Origin: Longimicrobiales bacterium
GTDB taxonomy: Bacteria > Gemmatimonadota > Gemmatimonadetes > Longimicrobiales > Gaopeijiaceae
Assembly (NCBI GenBank): GCA_965116905.1
Contig: OZ220732.1
Span: 3,360,001-3,424,000 of the forward strand
DNA length: 64,000 nt
Direction of reading: 5' to 3'
Shown here one piece after another: positions 52,627 to 64,000 of the stretch. The stretch's first letter is position 1. Each line of letters starts with the position of its first letter. Below the pieces are notes generated by a model, which did no database searches, was not told the origin of the DNA, and saw only the letters and a program-made list of their open reading frames with translations. The position numbers and the translations under genes were made by a program.

Positions 52627-53205
52627 TCAGGTGGGGCCGGCGGATTCCCGGTCGCGAAGGAGCAGCGCGGAAGCCACGCAGATGAACGATGCGACCCAAA
52701 CCCAGTAGCCGACGCGCAGGTGGCCCATACCGTCCCGCCAAAAGTGGGGCCAGCCGAACAGAGCCGACAACGCCCAGTAGAGGTTGAGCACCGCCGCACC
52801 TGCCACCAGCCGGAGCAGCCAGCGGCTCTCTGGAGGCCGCACGCCTCCCAGCTTCAGGAAGGTCAGCAGAATCAGAAGGTTGCTGAGCCCGCTGAGCACG
52901 GCGACGAGATCCTCCACGGAGGACATCGCAGTGACGAGGAGAATCGCCATGAAGGCGGCCTCCCAGCCAGGGACCCCTGGGCGGCGTTCAGCCGGCTCCT
53001 CGGCGCCCCCGGTATCGGCGGGTTGAACCGGCTCGGGGTCCGCGGTTTCCGTGAACGCCGGTGGCGGGGGTGGCGGGGGTGGCGGTAGGCGTGGGCCTAA
53101 CGGGGGTACAGCCGTCGCCGGCAACACGAACGACACCGCGAACATCGCCCATCCCGCAAGCAACAGGCGCCGCCAACTCCTGACCATGCGCTCCACCACT
53201 GACAT
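52627..53205 (-). CDS. Membrane protein, paralog of the TM domain of 53708-54373
   Basis: GGAGG RBS, WRRLLLAGWAMFAVSFVLPA ... GYWVWVASFICVA. Confidence 0.75.
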   Translation of the reverse strand: MSVVERMVRSWRRLLLAGWAMFAVSFVLPATAVPPLGPRLPPPPPPPPPAFTETADPEPVQPADTGGAEEPAERRPGVPGWEAAFMAILLVTAMSSVEDLVAVLSGLSNLLILLTFLKLGGVRPPESRWLLRLVAGAAVLNLYWALSALFGWPHFWRDGMGHLRVGYWVWVASFICVASALLLRDRESAGPT

Positions 53206-53282
53206 GGCGACCTCCCGCGAGACATGAAGTCCTCCCCGAAGGACTACGGCCTGCGGTAGGCGAACGCAACCCGGTTGCCTCC

Positions 53283-53326
53283 TTGTCCCGCCGGCCGCCT
53301 TCCTATACATTGTACCTCAAGGTACA
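53283..53326 (+). promoter_or_regulatory. padR promoter with an overlapping palindromic operator
   Basis: TTGTCC-17-TACATT, and TGTACC-TCAA-GGTACA (53311-53326) spanning the predicted start site. Confidence 0.6.
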
Positions 53327-53373: not shown

Positions 53374-53715
53374 GTGAAGAAATCGATTTCCAAGGAACTC
53401 GTGGCCGCCTCGTCGCGGCCGATGGTGCTTTCGATCCTGGCGGGCGGCGAGAGCTACGGCTACGAGATTCTTAAGCAGGTGAAGCTGCTCTCGGACGGAG
53501 AGCTGCAGTGGTCGGACGGGATGCTGTACCCGGTCCTGCACCGGCTGGAACGCGACGGGCTGATCGCCGGCCGGTGGCAGCTGACCGAGGCGGGACGGCG
53601 GCGGAAGTACTACCGGCTCACCAGCCGCGGCAAGGGCCAGCTGGCGAGTGACCGGCAGAACTGGCGAGCCGTGCATGGGGCGCTCGAGATGTCCTGGGGA
53701 GGCAGCCATGTTTGA
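53374..53715 (+). CDS. PadR family transcriptional regulator
   Basis: VLSILAGGESYGYEI, GMLYPVLHRLE, RRKYYRLTSRG. Confidence 0.93.
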   Translation: MKKSISKELVAASSRPMVLSILAGGESYGYEILKQVKLLSDGELQWSDGMLYPVLHRLERDGLIAGRWQLTEAGRRRKYYRLTSRGKGQLASDRQNWRAVHGALEMSWGGSHV

Positions 53716-54373
53716 CCTGGATAGGGCGGTCGGGCGCTGGCGCAAGAAGCTGGAGAGCGAATCCTCGCTGTCGCCGTGCGAGGTGGACGAACTCGAGGAT
53801 CACCTCCGGGCCCACTTCGACCTGGAGATGGAACTGACTCCTGAGCAGACCCGCGTGACGGCGTTCGCGAACGCGAGCGGGGGGATGGGCGAACCGGCGG
53901 ACCTGTCGAAAGAGTTCGCGAGAGCGGGAAGCCCGAGGTGGCGGCAGCTGATCTACGCCGGATGGGCGTTGTTTGCGGTCTCGTTCGTGCTGCCGGCGTA
54001 CGCCGAGGGTCCGGGCCACGGTATCTTCTCCTTCGGGACCATGTCCGGTTGGGGCGCGTTCCAGAGCGCGGTATTCTGGGGCGACTGGCTGGGCAGGCTC
54101 AGTGCCGCGACCAACCTCATCATGCTGGGCAGCCTGCTCATCCTCCGCACCTCCCGGCGCGGGCGCGGCCGCTGGCTCCGATGGCTCGTGGGAGGCGCCG
54201 GTATCCTGAACCTCGCGTACTGGCCGATCTGGGTCGTGACTGAGGGTGACCCGGTGTCGGACCTGCTGCCCGGCTACTGGATCTGGGTGGCGTCGTTCCT
54301 TTGTGTGGCCGCCGGCATCTGGATGTCGGTGAAGGAGCGCACGTCGATCGGTTTCGTGCCGGAGACCTCCTGA
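53708..54373 (+). CDS. Membrane protein with an N-terminal permease-prefix (HAAS-like) domain
   Basis: EVDELEDHL...MGEPADLSKEF followed by ~4 TM helices. Overlaps padR. Confidence 0.8.
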   Translation: MFDLDRAVGRWRKKLESESSLSPCEVDELEDHLRAHFDLEMELTPEQTRVTAFANASGGMGEPADLSKEFARAGSPRWRQLIYAGWALFAVSFVLPAYAEGPGHGIFSFGTMSGWGAFQSAVFWGDWLGRLSAATNLIMLGSLLILRTSRRGRGRWLRWLVGGAGILNLAYWPIWVVTEGDPVSDLLPGYWIWVASFLCVAAGIWMSVKERTSIGFVPETS

Positions 54374-54377
54374 CGCG

Positions 54378-54511: not shown

Positions 54512-56896
54512 ATGTATGCCGCCTTTCCGTATTCGCCCACGACCAGGGCCGCCGCTCTGACGGCCACCCTCGCCGCCCTGACGGCCACCCTCGCCGCCCT
54601 CGCCGTCCTCGCCACCCTCGCCGTCCTCCCTGCCCTGCCCGCCGAGGCGCAGCAGCGCCCCTTCACGACTGAGGTCGCGCTCGACGTCAACCTGGTGGGC
54701 ATCGCGGCGGTCACGAGCGACGGCTCCCGCGTGGCCGCGACGGTGCGCACCCGGCGCGACCGCACCGATGTCGACCATCAGCGCTTCGGCGACCCCACGT
54801 ACATCTCGCCCACCTCGACCCGGCTGATGGTGATCGACACGCGGAGCGGCAACCGCACATGGGTGCACGAGGACCCGGCCCAGCTGCGCGGCTTCGCGTG
54901 GTCGCCCGACGGGGAGCGGCTGGCCTACTTCGCCGTCGAGGGCGGGGAGTACCGGCTCCGGATCTTCGACGCGCGCGCGGGCAGCGCCGAGACCGTGGCG
55001 CTCGGCACCGACAACGAGATCGCGTCGTCGTCGCCGCTCGTGTGGGCTCCCGATGCGTCCGGGGTGCTCCTCGGGCTGCGGCCGGCCGGGTGGGCCGAGG
55101 AGGCTCGCGCGGCCTTCGTAGCCCTGACCGAGGCGCCGGTGATCGTGCAGGATTCCCGCAACGACTTCCTGGCCTGGGACCGCGTGAGGAACATCGCCGC
55201 GCGGCAGATCATCGCGCTCGTCTCACTCGAAGACGGCGGCGGCGGCAGCAATGGCAGTGTGCGCGAAGTGCTGACCGGTGCGACGCCTTCCGGGCTGGGG
55301 TTCTCGGCCGACGGCTCGTACGTGACCTATTCGACGGCGACGCGCACGAAGACGTCGTACACGCGGCGGGACGGAACCGAGTACGCGCTGTACCGGCTCG
55401 ACCTTGCGGACGGCGGCGAGCCCGAGTTGCTGCGGGACACCGGCGAGGAGCGGATGGGTGTGACATGGAACGACGCGCGCGATGCGTTCGCGTACAGTGA
55501 GGACGGGTCGGTGTTTGTGCGCAGGCTGGATCAGGACGAGGCGGTCGACGTGACGGCGGCGCACCGGGGGGACGCGGAAGAGGCCGGTGGGGCCGACGCC
55601 GCTGCCGACGCCGACGCCGACGCCGACTCGGACTCCGCCGCCGACTCCGCCCGCATCCGCTTCTCCGTTCAGCGCTGGAGCCCGTCCGGGGACGCGCTGC
55701 TGCTCGCCTCGCAGGACGCCTGGCACCTGCTGGAGCCGGGCACGGGCCCCGCCAGCAACAACCTCCGCACCCTCCTCGAACTCGAGGACGACGAAGACGC
55801 CCGGCCCCGCCGCCAGGTTCAGGGCTGGCGCGACGACGGGCGCCACGTCCACTTTAGCTACTCCGCCCGCGACCGCTGGCAGCGCGGCCTGAAGCGCCTC
55901 GACACCGCCACCGGCGCCATCGAGACCCTGGTCCTGGACAGCAACCTCTACCGCTCCTGGAACGTCTCGGACGACGGCGGAACGGTCGTTTACACCATGT
56001 CCGACGGCGACCGCCCCGACGAGATCCACGTCGCGCGCGGCGACTTCCCGGCGGCTCGCCGGCTCACGACCTCCAACCCGGGGCTCGACGACGTCGCGCT
56101 CACCCGCAGCGAGCTCGTCGAGTACCTGGACGTCGACGGCAACACCCTCTACGGCATCCTCTACTACCCCGCCAACTACGAGCCCGGGCGCAAGTACCCG
56201 CTCGTGGCCGAGATCTACGAGCAGTTCTTCGACAACGGCTTCAACGAGAACATGAACCTGATCACCGCGCAGGGGTGGTTCGGGTTCCGCCCGTCGGTGC
56301 GCTTCGAGGAGGGATTTCCCGGCGAGGCGTGGCTGAAGGCCGTGCCCAACGCGATCAACAAGATCATCGAGCGGGGCCTCGTCGACCCCGACAGGGTGGG
56401 CGTCTACGGGCAGAGCTACGGGGGCTACGCGACCAACCTGCTGATCACCCAGACCGACCGTTTCGCGGCGGCGGCGAACGTGTCCGGCAAGGTGAACATC
56501 ATCTCGTTCCTGGGCGACTCGCCCAAGATCACGACGCGCAACTACGCGGCCGCCGAGGTCGGGCAGGACCGGATCGGCGCCACGCTCTGGGAGCAGCCGC
56601 ACAAGTATATCGAGCACTCGGCGGTCATGTTCGCGGACCGGATCGAGACGCCGCTGCTCATGCTTTCGGGCGAGGGCGACTGGAACGTGCCGGCCACCAA
56701 CCAGCGCGAGATGTACTACGCGCTCCGCCGGCTGGGGAAGGAGGTCGTGTGGGTGCACTACACCGCGGGCGGTCACGGAGCCGGGCGCGCCAGCACGGCG
56801 GCCGATTTCGCGGATCATTGGCAGCGCATGTTCGAGTGGTTTGCCGAGCACTTTGTTGATGAGGAGGAGAGCAGAGCGGCGACATCGGACCGGTGA
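54512..56896 (+). CDS. Secreted S9 (prolyl oligopeptidase-family) peptidase
   Basis: AAGGAG RBS, signal peptide with ATLAALT repeats, propeller WSPDG motifs, triad GQSYGG / GEGD / GGHG. Confidence 0.9.
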   Translation: MYAAFPYSPTTRAAALTATLAALTATLAALAVLATLAVLPALPAEAQQRPFTTEVALDVNLVGIAAVTSDGSRVAATVRTRRDRTDVDHQRFGDPTYISPTSTRLMVIDTRSGNRTWVHEDPAQLRGFAWSPDGERLAYFAVEGGEYRLRIFDARAGSAETVALGTDNEIASSSPLVWAPDASGVLLGLRPAGWAEEARAAFVALTEAPVIVQDSRNDFLAWDRVRNIAARQIIALVSLEDGGGGSNGSVREVLTGATPSGLGFSADGSYVTYSTATRTKTSYTRRDGTEYALYRLDLADGGEPELLRDTGEERMGVTWNDARDAFAYSEDGSVFVRRLDQDEAVDVTAAHRGDAEEAGGADAAADADADADSDSAADSARIRFSVQRWSPSGDALLLASQDAWHLLEPGTGPASNNLRTLLELEDDEDARPRRQVQGWRDDGRHVHFSYSARDRWQRGLKRLDTATGAIETLVLDSNLYRSWNVSDDGGTVVYTMSDGDRPDEIHVARGDFPAARRLTTSNPGLDDVALTRSELVEYLDVDGNTLYGILYYPANYEPGRKYPLVAEIYEQFFDNGFNENMNLITAQGWFGFRPSVRFEEGFPGEAWLKAVPNAINKIIERGLVDPDRVGVYGQSYGGYATNLLITQTDRFAAAANVSGKVNIISFLGDSPKITTRNYAAAEVGQDRIGATLWEQPHKYIEHSAVMFADRIETPLLMLSGEGDWNVPATNQREMYYALRRLGKEVVWVHYTAGGHGAGRASTAADFADHWQRMFEWFAEHFVDEEESRAATSDR

Positions 56897-56963
56897 CCGA
56901 TGCCGCAACGGGGTGGTGGTGAGGGGCGTGCGGGAGGAGGCAGGAGATAGCGGGGGATCCAAA

Positions 56964-57956
56964 ATGAACCACGGCATGTTCGCTGTCTCGGGGCCGAGCA
57001 ACGGCCTCGCCGATCATTACATAGACGCGATTGCCGCCGCACTCGACAAGAGCCGGCGCCCGGCTACGCTGCGCGCCTACGAGCGCGCCTGGGAGCGCTT
57101 CAGGACCTGGGCGGTGTCGGAGGGGCTGGAGCCGCTCCCCGCCGATCCGCTGACCGTGGCGGCCTATCTGGCGTACAGGGCGGGCATCGGGCGTTCCCCT
57201 TCCACGCTGGCGCTGGACCGCAAGGCCATCAGCTACCACCACGGCAAGCTGGGGTATCCGTCGCCCACGGCGTCCGAGGGGGTCAAGGCCACGCTGGCGG
57301 GGCTCCGCAACCAGGCGGCGGAAGACGGCCGCGGCGACCCCAGGCAGGCGCGTGCGCTGACCGGGAGCGCGCTCCGGGCGATCGAGCGGACCGCGCACCG
57401 GCGGCGGCGGGGGCCCACGGGCCGGACGGAATCGCTCGGGGCCGCGAACCACCGGGGCGACGTGGACATCGCGCTGGCCTCGGTCATGCGGGACGCCCTG
57501 CTCCGAAGGGGCGAAGCCGCGCGGCTCCGCTGGGGCGAGGTGGAGTTCTGGTCGGACGGTTCGGCCCGCGTCGTCATCCGGCAGTCGAAGACCAGCAAAG
57601 CCTCTGCCGTCCTGTACGTCGGCACGCGCGCCGCGAAGGCGCTGCGGCACATCCGTCCGGCCGACGCCGACCCGGGCGACCGCGTCTTCGGTCTGCGCTC
57701 CGGCCGCTCGATCGCGAACCGGATCGCGGCCATGGCAAGGGCGGCGGGGCTGGGCGAGGGGTTCAGCGGGCACTCGCCGCGCATCGGCATGGCCCAGGAC
57801 CTCACGGCCGCAGGGGTCGGCCTGCCCGCGCTGATGGTGGCCGGACGCTGGAAGTCGGAGCGCATGCCGGCGTACTACAGCCGCGCGCAATCGGCCGGCC
57901 GCGGGGCCGTGGCGAACTTCTACGGGAACGGCGCGGCGCCGGGAGGCGGGCGCTGA
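56964..57956 (+). CDS. Cre-like tyrosine recombinase
   Basis: Core-binding domain (TLRAYERAW..F..W, LPADPLTVAAYL, RQARAL) and catalytic residues R (LLRR), K (SKT), SGHSPRIGMAQD, W (AGRWKS), Y (MPAYY). Trp in place of the second His is as in Cre. Confidence 0.9.
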   Translation: MNHGMFAVSGPSNGLADHYIDAIAAALDKSRRPATLRAYERAWERFRTWAVSEGLEPLPADPLTVAAYLAYRAGIGRSPSTLALDRKAISYHHGKLGYPSPTASEGVKATLAGLRNQAAEDGRGDPRQARALTGSALRAIERTAHRRRRGPTGRTESLGAANHRGDVDIALASVMRDALLRRGEAARLRWGEVEFWSDGSARVVIRQSKTSKASAVLYVGTRAAKALRHIRPADADPGDRVFGLRSGRSIANRIAAMARAAGLGEGFSGHSPRIGMAQDLTAAGVGLPALMVAGRWKSERMPAYYSRAQSAGRGAVANFYGNGAAPGGGR

Positions 57957-57961
57957 CGGAC

Positions 57962-57995
57962 CTCTAAGTTAGCTAATTATCTAGCTACGTTAGAG
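57962..57995. other. Candidate lox-type recombination site (13-bp arms + 8-bp asymmetric spacer)
   Basis: CTCTAAGTTAGCT-AATTATCT-AGCTACGTTAGAG. Arms are 11/13 complementary, the site is an AT-rich island, and it starts 5 bp after the recombinase stop. Confidence 0.65.
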
Positions 57996-58430
57996 ATTGA
58001 GGCCCCTCAGGTAGCCGCGGACTTCCGCGAGGCCTTGACGCAGGGTCTGCTGTTGCCTTCGCAGTGCGGCCTGCTGCCTTCGGAGTTCGTCCTGTTCTCT
58101 CTGGAGTTGGGCCTGTTCCCGGCGGAGGTTGGTCTGTTCCCGGCGGAGTTCGGTCTGTTCCCTCTGGAGGCCGGCGACCTTGTAGCCGATGTCGGCGACC
58201 TCGTGGCGGAGGTCGGAGCGTCGACGCAGTTCCCATGCCGATCGCGGATGGTAGGTGGATGATCTCATCACAAGGCAATCACTTCGCCCGGTGACCTGGC
58301 TTGGGCTCCCCGCCCACCTCTCCCAACCCACTCGGCGCAGTTCTTCGACTTTGTACCGCAAGACCGCCATCCCTGCCAAGGCAGTTCCCACACACGTTCC
58401 CGCTAGAACAGCGAATTGCCACCAATCCAT
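57990..58430 (-). CDS. Small membrane-anchored coiled-coil protein
   Basis: GGAGG RBS, N-terminal TM MDWWQFAVLAGTCVGTALAGMAVL, heptad repeats LQREQTE/LRREQTN/LRREQAQ/LQREQDE (21-bp units). Confidence 0.7.
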   Translation of the reverse strand: MDWWQFAVLAGTCVGTALAGMAVLRYKVEELRRVGWERWAGSPSQVTGRSDCLVMRSSTYHPRSAWELRRRSDLRHEVADIGYKVAGLQREQTELRREQTNLRREQAQLQREQDELRRQQAALRRQQQTLRQGLAEVRGYLRGLNL

Positions 58431-58520
58431 AACCGCCTCCCCCCCACTTTGGCCCCTCTCCCCGTGCCGGTACTCGGTCCCGACCCACCGAAGGTACCGA
58501 CGAACCACTTTCTTTGCGAG

Positions 58521-61500
58521 GTGGGGACGGTAACGGTGGAGAACATGGGCCTCGCGGGCGTGACTGTCATGCTTTCCGGCATGGCTGATGGTCAGACCAC
58601 GACCGACGACAGCGGCCAGTTCTCCTTCACGGGACTGCGCGCCGGCACGTATTCGGTCGAGATCTCCGGCTTCGACACCAACGAAGTCAGCTTCTCGAGC
58701 ACCTCCGGTGCCGCGACGGTCGGCGTCGGCGAGTCCAAGGTCGTCAGCTTCGACGGCACGTATCTCCGCACCGCGGGGATCCAGGGCCAGGTAAGCGTGG
58801 ACGGCGAGGGCCTCGGCGGCGTGACGGTGACGCTGGTGGGCGAAGGCGAAGAGCGGACCGACGTGACGGATGCGGGCGGGCTCTACGCGTTCTCGGCGCT
58901 TAAGAGCGGCACCTACCAGGTCGCGATCACGAACCCGGATCCCGAGGACTACGAGTTCACGACCACGTCGAAGAGCGCGACGGTCGCGACGGGCGAGACC
59001 GCCAACGTGCCGTTCGAAGGCACGCTGCTGCGGACGGCCGGTATCGCGGGCCGGGTCAGTCTCGACGACGGCATGGGCCTTGACGGCGTGACGGTTACGC
59101 TCGCGGGCGCAGCCGAGGCGACGGCGACGACGTCGAACGGCGGTCAGTACGCTTTTGCCGGGCTGGCGGCTGGCACCTACGTGCTCAGCATCGAGAACCC
59201 GGACGCCAACGCGTACAGCTTCGCCGAAGACGAGATGATGAAGACGGTCATGCTGGAAGACGACCAGTCTGCGATCGTCAACTTCAGCGGGACGCACACC
59301 CGCACCGCCTCGGTGTCGGGCATGCTGTTCGTCGACGAAGTGATGCAGGACAAGATGTACACCGACGGCGAGCCCACGATCGTCGCAGCGCTGGGACCCT
59401 GGTTGGGGTCGCTGGCCGACGATGACCCGGCGAAGATGGCCGTGCTCGGAGCGCTGGCCAAGGCGACGGTGAAGCTGCGCGGCCCGGATCTCAGCGACGA
59501 GCATGACATTCCCATCATGGCGGACGGCAGCTTCACGACGGGCCCGGCGCTGATGGCCGGTTCGTACCAGGTCGAGTTGCCGGTCAACGACGACGACGTG
59601 GCGGCGGGACTCGCCGCGGCAGGCGTCGCGTTTGTGGGCGAGTCGATGGTGGTCAACGTCGAGGCTGGCGGCAACGCGACGGTCAACTTCCCGTTCCGGA
59701 TCACGATGCAGACGGTGGTGACCGGTGCCCGCATGGGCGGCGGCGGCCACTTCGGTCTCCCGGTCGAGGGCGTGGAGCTGGCGCTGTACGCCCGGGCCGA
59801 CGGCACCGACATGCTGGGCGAGGCCACGACCGACGAGATGGGCATGGCCACGTTCAACTTCGCGCGCGCGGACAACACGGGTCCCGTGGGCAACGACAAC
59901 ATCGTATTCGTGAAGGCCATGGATTCGGGGCACCCGGCGCTGCACGTGAGCGGCAACGAGTTCGTCGAGATCAACCATGCGTCGACGGCGCGTCTCTACG
60001 CGGCGGACGCCGAGAAGGAAGTGGCGACGCTGATCAACGTGGCGGTCGCGTTCGACTTCTGGGTCAAGAGCAACGAGATGGCCCGCAACGGCGACGAGGG
60101 CCTCGGCGGCTGGAGCACCGAGGTCTACTTGGGCGATCCGGAGGACGAGGACAACATGCCTCTGATGCTTCCGAATCCCATGGATCCCACGATGATGGTC
60201 AACGCCACCCTGCCCACGGACACCACGAAGGGCGACGATCTGGGTAAGAGCACGTTCGCGTACGTGGCCGACCCGACGATGGTGGATTATCCCGTGACGT
60301 TCACGGTGATGGCGGCCATGGACGACGAGGCCGACTGTAAGGGATCGGGCCTGATGGCGGTATCCGATCAGCCCGACCAGTGCGAGATGTGGGAGCAGAG
60401 CGACGCGCTCACGCACACGCACACGGGGCTTGACCTTCCGCCGGGCAAGGACGACGACATGCTCGACCTCGGCCCCATCCGGATCACGTACACGACGCAG
60501 ACCGTCTACGTCGGCGCGCACCGTGAGCTGGACGACCGGACCGGGTTTACCGACTTCATCGGTGTCGGAGACGGCGATGCCCGTCCCATGGGCACCGGCG
60601 TGGACGAGATCGAGGTCAGCCTGATGGTCGCGGACAGCAGAGGGCGTCTCAGAGCCTTCGAGTATGACCACGACATGGACGAGGACACGGAGGATGTCGA
60701 AGCGACGGCGACCGTCGGCGCTTCGGGCATGGTGTCATTCGCCCACATTCCCGCCGATACCGAATTCACGGTCGTGGCCGATGCGGGCAGCGACATGATG
60801 ATCGTTCCCGACGATCGATCCACGAGGGAGATCGACGCGTTCGGCGATCAGCTGGACGACTATCCCGACGGCAAGATGGTCGGCGCCTTCGGTGACGGCA
60901 GCGGCGCGCGTGCGGACGTCTGGATCTGCCCGCTGTGGAGACTCGACAACGACGATCCCAACGAGAACTGCTCGACCTTCGCCTACAAGTGGGCGACCGG
61001 GACGATCTCGGGCGATATCGACGGTCTCCGCAAGGGCGACAAGGCGTCCGTGATCCTGACGCCGGTCAACAGTAACGAAGACTACGAGGACGACCTCGCG
61101 GACGACGACGAGATCACCGCCGGGACGGGCGGAGCGGCCAGCTACTCCTTCACGGGTGTTGCGGACGGCCGTTACATGGTCACGCTCGAAGCCAAAGCAG
61201 GAAGCTGGGAAGAGGACGAGACCAAAGTGCTCTCCGTCATGCACGACGAGGAAAGCGAAGACGAGGAATACACCGGCGCGACTGCGGGCGAGGACCTGTC
61301 CGCCAGCGACCTGCGCGGCGTGATCCGTGGCCGGATCGCGAACGACTCGAATGGCCGAGCGGGCCTGACGAGCGACGAGTCCAGGGCCGGCGTCGTGGTG
61401 GAGATCTACTCGGCGAAGAAGGTCGGTGGATCAGGCACCACCAAGAACAACTACGTGCCCGACGAAGCCGTGACGGACGCGGACGGCGACGAGGTGATGG

Positions 61501-62963
61501 CCGAGACCGACGGCGAAGGCGTCTTCATGTTCGAGAACCTGGTGGTTGGCGACATGTACTTCCTGAAGCCGGTGGAGACCGACCTGTACATCTCGGTCAG
61601 GAACGGCAACACGAGCATCGGCAAGACGGCCGAGAAGGCCACGGATGTGGTGCCGCACGCGCTCGTGACAGCTGGACTGCCGCCCAGGGCGGGCACCGAG
61701 CCAGGAATCCCGACATGGGACTACCACACGAGCATGGCCACACCCAATGGCGACGCCAACTTCGTACTGCTGTACAAGGACGGCGAGGTCGAGGGTAAGG
61801 TGTCGGATCCGAGCGTGCGTGCCGCGCACAGTCGCTCGGTCGTCGAACTGCACCTGTGCAGGACGTCGAACCAGGTGCTTGATACCTCGGTAGACCCCCC
61901 CACAGTGACCACGGCTGCGACTGGATGCGGCGGGGGCGTAAATGCGTACGAGGGCACGGTTGTGGAAGCCGACGTAGACGAGGACGGCGACTGGAGTGCC
62001 GATGGCCTCCGGGAAGGCCTCTACGAGGTGGTTCCCGACCTGCCGGCGGGCTATGTCGTTTCCGACTCGGCCGGTACGACGGACGGGACCGGCACCAGCT
62101 ACCACGCCCAGCAGTTCGTCGACCTGAGGGGTGGGCGCGCCGATGACGACACCGAGACCATCCACATCAAGGACCGGAACGCGGGTGACGGCGCTACGCT
62201 TACGAGTGTCGAGATCGACGGTACTGCTTGCACCAGGGGCACCGCTACCAACCCCGCGGACAACAACTGCGGCCACGATGCGGCCGGATCGTTCTCCGTG
62301 GTGGCTACCGCGTCCACGGGTGCGGTCGTCCGTCTGAGCTCGAGCGCGACGGATGCGACGCCCACCGGGACGGGGACGTACTCGGTGGTGGTGAGTAACG
62401 GGAAAGCCACGACGGTCACGCTGTCCAAGCCTGGCAGCAGGAGGTTCTTCGTTCACGTCGCGGCCGAGGACGGCTACGCATCCAACGACGCGACCAATGA
62501 AGGCTTCCACGTCCGGCGCGACGCCGACGTGCGCGTGAAGGAAGTCACGATCGCATGGAGCGGCGACAGGATCGAACTGGATCGTGACGCGCTCAATCTG
62601 GATCCCGACGGTGAGACGGATCCGGTCACCGGGACGACGACCCTGAGGGTCACCGTGGACAAGGGTGACAACAATGGGGATATCCCGATTACGGATCTCA
62701 CGGTTACGGCCATGGGCATGACCACGGGATTTGGTGTGGCAGGATTCGGCACCGTCGACGTGACCACGACTCCCATCGCGTGTTCCGCCGCAGACTTCAC
62801 CGGCCTCAGCGGAGACGGCACCCTCACGTTGCCGGCGAACACGGCGACCGACAAGGGGAGCGACGGGGTCTGCTTCCGGATCGCCGACACCGACGGTGAG
62901 TCTGATCCAGACGCCAACGCGGACAACAACCGCGACTACATCCTGATCGTGACCAGGAAGTAG
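58521..62963 (+). pseudogene. 5'-truncated large acidic surface-protein gene with carboxypeptidase-regulatory/SdrD-B-like beta-sandwich repeats (possible silent cassette)
   Basis: Open frame of ~1480 codons. Homology to the 63123 paralog starts abruptly at its codon ~121, so it lacks the lipoprotein signal and first repeat. No well-spaced RBS/start. Confidence 0.65.
58576..59038 (+). repeat. Near-identical direct repeat, copy 1 (copy 2 at 63538-64000)
   Basis: Offset 4962 bp. About six mismatches seen by eye, all synonymous third positions. Confidence 0.92.
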
Positions 62964-63122: not shown

Positions 63123-64000
63123 ATGGACAGGCTCAGGAGGTTCCTGGGAATGGCGACGTTGCTGGTGCTTCCGATCATCGCCGCGTGCGGAGAGGACGTC
63201 ATTCCTCCTCCGCCGACGGGCTCCATCGTGGGCCAGGTGTCGATCGAGGGCATGGGGATCGACGGGGTAACCGTCTCCCTTAGCAACGGGGCCTCCACTG
63301 CTACGGCTGGTGGCGGGAACTACCGCTTCGACACCGTGGAGCAGGGCTCCTATACGGTGACGATCAGCGGATTCCCCGCGGACGCCAGCTTCGATGCAAC
63401 CTCAGCTCCCGCCAGCATAGGCGACACCGGCGGGACGGTCACCGTGGACTTCCGCGGCACCTATATCCGCACCGCCTCGATCCTCGGAACGATCACTGTT
63501 GAGGGCAGCGGTCTCGGCGGGGTGACGGTGCGCCTTCCCGGCATGGCTGATGGCCAGACCACGACCGACGACAGCGGCCAGTTTTCCTTCACGGGACTGC
63601 GCGCCGGCACGTATTCGGTCGAGATCTCCGGCTTCGACACCAACGAGGTCAGCTTCTCGAGCACCTCCGGTGCCGCGACGGTCGGCGTCGGCGAGTCCAA
63701 GGTCGTCAGCTTCGACGGCACGTATCTCCGCACGGCGGGGATCCAGGGCCAGGTAAGCGTGGACGGCGAGGGCCTCGGCGGCGTGACGGTGACGCTGGTG
63801 GGCGAAGGCGAAGAGCGGACCGACGTGACGGATGCGGGCGGGCTCTACGCGTTCTCGGCGCTCAAGAGCGGCACCTACCAGGTCGCGATCACGAACCCGG
63901 ATCCCGAAGACTACGAGTTCACGACCACGTCGAAGAGCGCGACGGTCGCGACGGGCGAGACCGCCAACGTGCCGTTCGAAGGCACGCTGCTGCGGACGGC
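63123..64000 (+). CDS. Large surface lipoprotein paralog with carboxypeptidase-regulatory-like repeats (runs off the window end)
   Basis: AAGGA RBS, MDRLRRFLGMATLLVLPIIAA-C lipobox, open frame to 64000. Absent from the ORF track because there is no stop in the window. Confidence 0.88.
   Translation, partial: MDRLRRFLGMATLLVLPIIAACGEDVIPPPPTGSIVGQVSIEGMGIDGVTVSLSNGASTATAGGGNYRFDTVEQGSYTVTISGFPADASFDATSAPASIGDTGGTVTVDFRGTYIRTASILGTITVEGSGLGGVTVRLPGMADGQTTTDDSGQFSFTGLRAGTYSVEISGFDTNEVSFSSTSGAATVGVGESKVVSFDGTYLRTAGIQGQVSVDGEGLGGVTVTLVGEGEERTDVTDAGGLYAFSALKSGTYQVAITNPDPEDYEFTTTSKSATVATGETANVPFEGTLLRT
63538..64000 (+). repeat. Near-identical direct repeat, copy 2
   Basis: Matches 58576-59038. Confidence 0.92.

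Follow-up and report, generated by a model that had tools for sequence, protein, structure and literature searches.

A Cre-like tyrosine recombinase and a candidate shufflon/vsa-type inversion system for surface lipoproteins in an uncultured genus of Gemmatimonadota

Tyrosine recombinases act as two monomers per site, introduce staggered cuts at the spacer, pass through a Holliday intermediate and produce inversion when the two sites are inverted relative to each other. Enzymes driving mycoplasma switches of the vsa type are Xer-like (HvsR, Xer1). In the R64/IncI shufflon (Rci, sfx, pilV), recombination at a site within the gene joins alternative C-terminal portions of a surface adhesin to a constant head, and the sfx sites, according to the accessible part of PMC11852207, are asymmetric with 12-7-12 architecture, combining a conserved 7-bp spacer and right arm with a variable left arm. 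In the vsa and mba systems, as described in the accessible part of PMC3047005, inversion positions promoter, RBS and the 5′ lipoprotein part upstream of a silent gene's 3′ portion, one expression site serving the silent surface-lipoprotein genes of Mycoplasma pulmonis vsa and of Ureaplasma mba and UU172. A further group is formed by Cre/loxP, Dre/rox, Nigri/nox and Panto/pox (PMC10250229, accessible part), whose site is a symmetric 13-8-13 resolution site; following the same source, spacers of recombining sites are presumed to match. Pairs of this kind were mined there by arms of 13-15 bp, an 8-bp spacer, no more than 2 asymmetries and location within 1 kb, with 8 of the 17 tested candidates being active. 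Here, we compare with these systems a locus from the window, meaning the whole analysed stretch of 64,000 nucleotides, which belongs to a 4.2-Mb genome (G000). Other G-numbers denote genomes, L-numbers homologous loci and X-numbers read runs, and the features are collected in Table 1.

Table 1. Features of the recombinase locus, in window coordinates
Feature	Position	Strand	Remarks
Cre-like tyrosine recombinase, 330 aa	56964..57956	+	Catalytic set R181/K209/H270/R273/W296/Y305
13+8+13 palindrome of the initial annotation (34-mer)	57962..57995		Unconserved; core recurs as a palindrome at gene ends; shares bases with the stop codon of the convergent gene
Small convergent coiled-coil gene, 146 codons	57990..58430	-	Present in L002, absent in L001
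Left arm of the putative crossover site, degenerate	58510..58522	+	Non-coding
Proposed 7-bp spacer GGGGACG	58523..58529	+	Identical between partner sites, variable between loci; length deduced
Conserved right arm GTAACGGTRGAR	58530..58542	+	Codes Val-Thr-Val-Glu in the cassette
Silent cassette A, 1479 codons, no signal peptide	58524..62963	+	SdrD_B/CarboxypepD_reg beta-sandwich repeats and a variable C-terminal part
Complete paralogue E, start	63123..64000, to G000 3427910	+	85% aa to cassette A; own head, degenerate site

The recombinase gene is an intact reading frame between its ATG (56964) and TGA (57956), and all 17 PDB sequence matches of the product are Cre or Tre (best E 4.6e-11). A Phage_integrase domain was matched at E 1.2e-9 and a SAM-like N-domain below threshold; NCBIfam gave no family match either for the recombinase or for the cassette protein. 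The AlphaFold model has mean pLDDT 74 and pTM 0.56, with low confidence at the C-terminus (residues 288-330), and Foldseek placed Cre on top (E 2e-11, TM only ~0.40), the top 19 rows among the matches listed being Cre or Tre and XerA, XerD and lambda Int ranking lower. In our reading of the PDB sequence alignment, the catalytic set given in Table 1 would correspond to R173/K201/H289/R292/W315/Y324, the catalytic residues of Cre according to the accessible part of PMC10250229. Among 27 aligned homologues, chosen with exclusion of loci containing in-frame stops or partial matches, the first five of these residues are invariant and Y305 nearly so. The Cre-type features listed in the initial annotation, including Trp in place of the second His and the catalytic Tyr, are thus borne out by W296, Y305 and the PDB and Foldseek matches to Cre, and the enzyme can be assigned to the Cre type by an R-K-H-R-W-Y set as in Cre and a predicted two-domain fold nearer Cre than Xer or lambda Int. 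Its C-terminus lies 25 aa past Y305, and the aligned homologues are all of similar length; because the enzyme ends so shortly after the catalytic Tyr, no room is left for the extra C-terminal domain of the Rci type. Homologues are present in 45 of 53 genomes of an uncultured Gemmatimonadota genus, the nearest relatives are labelled Longimicrobiales or Gemmatimonadota, and plasmid relatives aligning over most of the protein have only ~30% identity. G000 encodes two recombinases, the window enzyme and a 67% paralogue, both intact. On the tree the window enzyme groups with L001-L005, and the enzymes of the compact switches described below form, together with others, one supported clade.

What is conserved beside these homologues, unlike the palindrome adjoining the gene, is an asymmetric site of 15 bp (58523-58537) located ~570 bp 3′ of the recombinase, at the very start of a large surface-protein cassette. 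The length of its spacer was set at 7 bp from arm symmetry and from agreement between partner sites. In a set of 77 distinct sites, conservation is seen in the spacer and right arm, and the left arm mirrors the right one only weakly (mean 5.7/13 in 49 silent sites and 6.5/13 in 28 head-side sites); the conservation is here due in part to the way the set was built. That is avoided by a codon test in which cassette starts were chosen by protein homology and hence independently of the motif: in 34 distinct starts within 1.5 kb of a recombinase, the third codon, Val, is GTA without exception (34/34; GTA accounts for 3.8% of Val codons in G000), GGG is used in 32/34 and ACG in 32/33, most later Gly, Val and Thr codons vary freely, and the constraint at codon level is limited to ~15 bp. 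Three copies of the 15-mer are present in G000, where 0.003 would be expected. Members of the SdrD_B/CarboxypepD_reg surface-protein family lie within 5 kb of the recombinase at 37 of 52 loci; the cassette proteins nearly always start abruptly at GTVTVE, with no head, and the distance from recombinase to cassette start is 59-661 bp in all but 3 of 37 rows. The other 15 of the 52 loci lack a cassette within 5 kb, some of them adjoining the far end of a cassette or other large lipoprotein genes, and no common exact flanking inverted repeat of at least 12 bp was found at 14 cassette-less loci. Close recombinase homologues at L010 and L021 lie between other large lipoprotein genes and lack the conserved site motif; these genes may represent a second target family.

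The three 15-mers of G000 differ in their surroundings. One, at 3472527 (-), lies inside a complete gene at 3472892 (-), where it follows, in inverted position, a 122-codon head that reads as a lipoprotein-type signal sequence (lipobox judged by eye) and one repeat. The two others, at window position 58523 (+) and at 3605171 (+), lie at the first codon of headless cassettes A and C, each of which adjoins a recombinase paralogue (the cassette C site is 99 bp from the 67% one) and is in frame with the 122-codon head. Cassette A is separated from the expression site by 54 kb, and cassette C lies up to 133 kb away. A cassette D at G000:C1:3463376 (L184) has lost precisely the 16 bp of the site, which are still present in the corresponding left flank of G031 (1600348), and a frameshift interrupts D close to its end. 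Paralogue E is likely a fixed, non-switching copy. Contigs of run X2 end directly behind 58537, a suggestive break that could also stem from a difference between strains, and no recombinant joint of the window's strain was seen in run contigs, whose breaks are ambiguous. Sponge metatranscriptome contigs of a related strain (run X3) cover cassette sequence and not the recombinase and give no expression levels; this related cassette sequence does not fix the habitat of the window's genome.

Taken with the rearranged forms of relatives considered below, this arrangement makes it likely that the locus is an inversion system of the shufflon/vsa type run by the Cre-like enzyme, with the crossover inside the surface-lipoprotein gene and not at the 34-bp palindrome. 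The expression site would synapse with an inverted cassette site, strands would be exchanged across the 7-bp spacer and a segment of 54 kb (cassette A) or 133 kb (cassette C) would be inverted, so that the single promoter and head become fused in frame to a new body of 1400-1500 aa and the old body is silenced; fusion of the head with cassette A would give 1601 aa. By analogy, the adjacent enzyme would serve the window's site. The type of enzyme, the site copies, the frames, the orientation bias and the reciprocal forms in relatives are matters of observation; the purpose, to judge from comparable systems, is likely surface variation against phage, host or neighbours.

In its layout the locus has features of a shufflon: several copies of a short asymmetric site are placed between one constant 5′ part and alternative in-frame 3′ parts, and alternative arrangements, encountered in relatives, appear to exist in nature. 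The site resembles R64 sfx, as the accessible part of the literature presents it, in the putative 7-bp spacer, the conserved right arm and the variable left arm. Unlike those of R64, cassettes of the window type measure 4-6 kb, are chromosomal and stand up to 133 kb apart, the target is no pilin, and genomes have several recombinase paralogues each. The enzyme is likewise unlike Rci, being Cre-like, 330 aa long and devoid of the extra C-terminal domain. With vsa, mba and UU172 the locus has in common that a single expression site of G000 carries a signal sequence and the silent cassettes, being headless, lack one; it is unlike them in phylum (its relatives being Gemmatimonadota), in the protein family and in the Cre-like enzyme. 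Cre-type pairs (PMC10250229, accessible part) are similar in protein fold, catalytic set and Trp at the Cre W315 position, and differ in the site, since the conserved site of the window type is asymmetric, in-gene, arranged for inversion and provided with a putative 7-bp spacer. Judging from sequence, the recombinase is probably not a member of the Rci family, nor the locus a lox-type pair. No description of such a system in Gemmatimonadota was found among the literature matches listed, which do not cover subscription papers; in particular, the main text and one supplementary file of PMC9881135 (large tables possibly lying outside these) contain no mention of Gemmatimonad or SdrD, and term searches yielded no mention of Gemmatimonad in PMC10028968 and no discussion of recombinase or inversion in PMC10469786 and PMC11316326.

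In relatives the same site would also run a compact ON/OFF version of 1.6-1.7 kb, whose head continues into a cassette in one state and into a 12-codon stub in the other. Nine such loci (L024, L025, L028, L029, L030, L032, L038, L039 and L046) contain two inverted sites 1.6-1.7 kb apart enclosing recombinase and head, and in eight of them the head runs into a stub of 12-27 codons (OFF). At L046, the segment with its internal recombinase is reversed, giving head plus cassette and left flank plus stub, with the exchange at the site; head plus stub and left flank plus cassette at L030 and L038 are the reciprocal combination. L046 is the only compact switch assembled ON and stops after 231 codons. 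Metagenome contigs L134 and L145 contain the flipped form of the G012 pair (the search that yielded them returned 21 stretches, about half of which were chance coding matches). In G014, one left flank is joined to two different cassettes, one of the joints being an exact mosaic with 2062 bp identical to the left flank, 6360 bp identical to the expressed cassette rightward and 0 bp shared left of the site, as would be expected of the product of a 49-kb inversion; the duplicate, located at contig ends, may reflect two co-assembled isomers or strains. Partner-site spacers are identical in 10 of 10 pairs (nine compact loci and G012), six forms being distributed across the pairs, and this agreement includes the spacer's first base, a position outside the coding sequence of the silent copy; four loci of G035 have four different spacers. 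Silent cassettes are inverted relative to the expression site in 25 of 28 cases from 15 genomes and co-oriented in 3 of 28, by a hand tally to which no p-value is attached because the genomes are related, and which excludes sites on contigs with no head, compact switches, chance coding matches, one G011 site and the lone second head in G033. Two separate assemblies, G031 and G032, carry one additional G (five instead of four) both at the expression site and at the A-type site (L093, L096, L083, L091), which fits exchange between these partners; the additional G throws the fusion out of frame, and the five-G form may be a second OFF state produced by slippage. Between the expression site and cassette C, the large flanks are collinear in G000, G031 and G001, and the C-type cassette is silent wherever found, so inversion with cassette C may be rare. 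Large-scale synteny with G031, G032 and G001 revealed no clean inversion of the segment from A to the expression site, the content of this segment differing too much. At L009, L005 and L004 (G034, G033 and G014), units of site, cassette and recombinase, ~5.2 kb each, stand in tandem with direct-repeat sites at their bounds, a layout that would be expected from circle integration.

Gene conversion or a RecA-type process acting on the homologous repeats at the 5′ ends of the cassettes could also exchange these, with the recombinase incidental or accessory; it would account for the homogenised cassette starts within genomes (the first 60 aa are common to three G031 cassettes) and agrees with the first ~800 bp of cassettes remaining 80-85% alike. 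Against it, the codon constraint is confined to ~15 bp, in compact switches the partners exchanged at the site are a cassette and a diverged stub, and the recombinase keeps its short distance to the cassette start in nearly all rows; we regard this explanation as very improbable.

In the initial annotation, the 34-bp palindrome was put forward as the recombinase's native, lox-like target, a role that now appears very improbable. The palindrome itself is exactly as was stated, starting 5 bp past the stop, with 11/13 complementary arms around the spacer AATTATCT, and its geometry and position fall within the mining bounds cited above from the accessible part of PMC10250229. Since G000 has only 9 AT-rich (at least 55% AT) positions among 185 with 13-8-13 arms matching at 11/13 or better, its occurrence beside a recombinase is not trivially expected by chance. 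Moreover, the stretch 57984-57996 at its right end matches the right arm of the conserved site at 10/13, so the enzyme might bind a half-site there; this match was found post hoc, matches of this quality number 550 genome-wide, 1.2% of AT-rich 40-bp windows contain one, and the arm-like motifs of the palindrome are separated by 3 bp more than those of the conserved site. The two checks suggested together with the proposal, further genomic copies and similar 34-mers beside homologous recombinases, both turned out negative. No second copy was detected within 8 mismatches across G000. When 50 recombinase loci were scanned (the window, its paralogue and 48 of 50 homologous loci, leaving out L045 and L048, which are partial or distant), the 34-mer was found in the window alone, the next best match being 20/34; a downstream palindrome of at least 11/13 occurs at one other locus only, L023, with unrelated sequence. 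Beside the 93% aa ortholog of L001 the 34-mer is missing along with the whole small convergent gene, and beside the 92% ortholog of L002 only its core is kept, in another spacing: the spacer exceeds that of the window by 1 bp and the right arm falls short by 5 bp. In the window, 6 bp at the outer end of the right arm (57990-57995, -) serve as a Leu codon and the stop of the convergent gene. Finally, the core, TAGCTA-N-TCTAGCTA, has 16 occurrences spread over 8 of 31 genomes, each of these 8 from the window's genus, and at 15 of the 16 loci it sits at gene ends with no recombinase, which lies within ~1.5 kb only in the window. The 34-mer is therefore probably not the recombinase's target; of the native, undescribed pair that had been suggested, the intact Cre-like enzyme and its having an undescribed native target stand, and the 34-mer as that target is not supported.

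As an element in its own right, the TAGCTA-N-TCTAGCTA palindrome is 18-19 bp long, rich in stop codons and found at the 3′ ends of genes, in many cases just past stops and often where two genes converge; a terminator-like element or a protein-binding site are its candidate roles. Further copies were recorded at G000:C1:2683398 and 4192874 and at L166-L181. The RNA hairpin of the 34-mer is modest (z -2.05; 7 of 200 shuffles are as good), a consensus scan of 56800-58700 gave neither an intrinsic terminator nor a promoter, and a repeated element or att site was ruled out, there being no second copy and no tRNA near. One contig of run X1 skips 57963-58458. Other palindromes were noticed in passing. 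A 31-bp operator-like one of the TTAGTTCAG/AAYTTA-N5-TAANCTGAACTAA type occurs at seven places in G000 (C1: 174329, 660102, 1334683, 1554450, 1645883, 1668181 and 2574387), which probably constitute a regulon; an intergenic low-complexity AGCTA/GGCTA repeat palindrome lies at G000:C1:1264321, and an AT-rich 13-8-13 palindrome at window position 54374. The window also encodes a PadR-like regulator, so assigned by inspection of the ORF list, and after it a membrane protein of which a partial duplicate lies on the opposite strand (53376-54373 and 52627-53310).

That the system was formerly active and is now frozen in the window's strain, with headless cassettes as relics, is the least probable explanation, suggested by the decayed cassette D, the out-of-frame fusions of G031 and G032 and the lack of a joint in the read-run contigs, and opposed by G000 having both recombinases, all three sites and the two cassettes A and C intact and in frame, and by alternative states present in relatives.

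The inversion system proposed here has consequences for the search for recombinases as well as for the organisms. Mining by the nearest palindrome can choose the wrong site. The system also supplies dozens of native pairs of enzyme and site, with natural variation among their spacers, and shufflon invertases are wanted for barcoding and diversification, as stated in the accessible part of PMC11852207. A Cre-fold enzyme acting on asymmetric sites, if true, would directly test the model crediting the extra domain of Rci with making such sites usable. Only tentatively, one may imagine that Cre-like enzymes perform cofactor-free, inversion-biased recombination at asymmetric sites with 7-bp spacers over 50-130 kb in the absence of this domain, that switches in one genome are separated by spacer alone (G035) and that tandem units (G033, G034) move as circles delivering new surface-protein bodies, like integron cassettes with their own integrase. 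For the uncultured Gemmatimonadota genus, the locus provides a candidate mechanism of surface variation.
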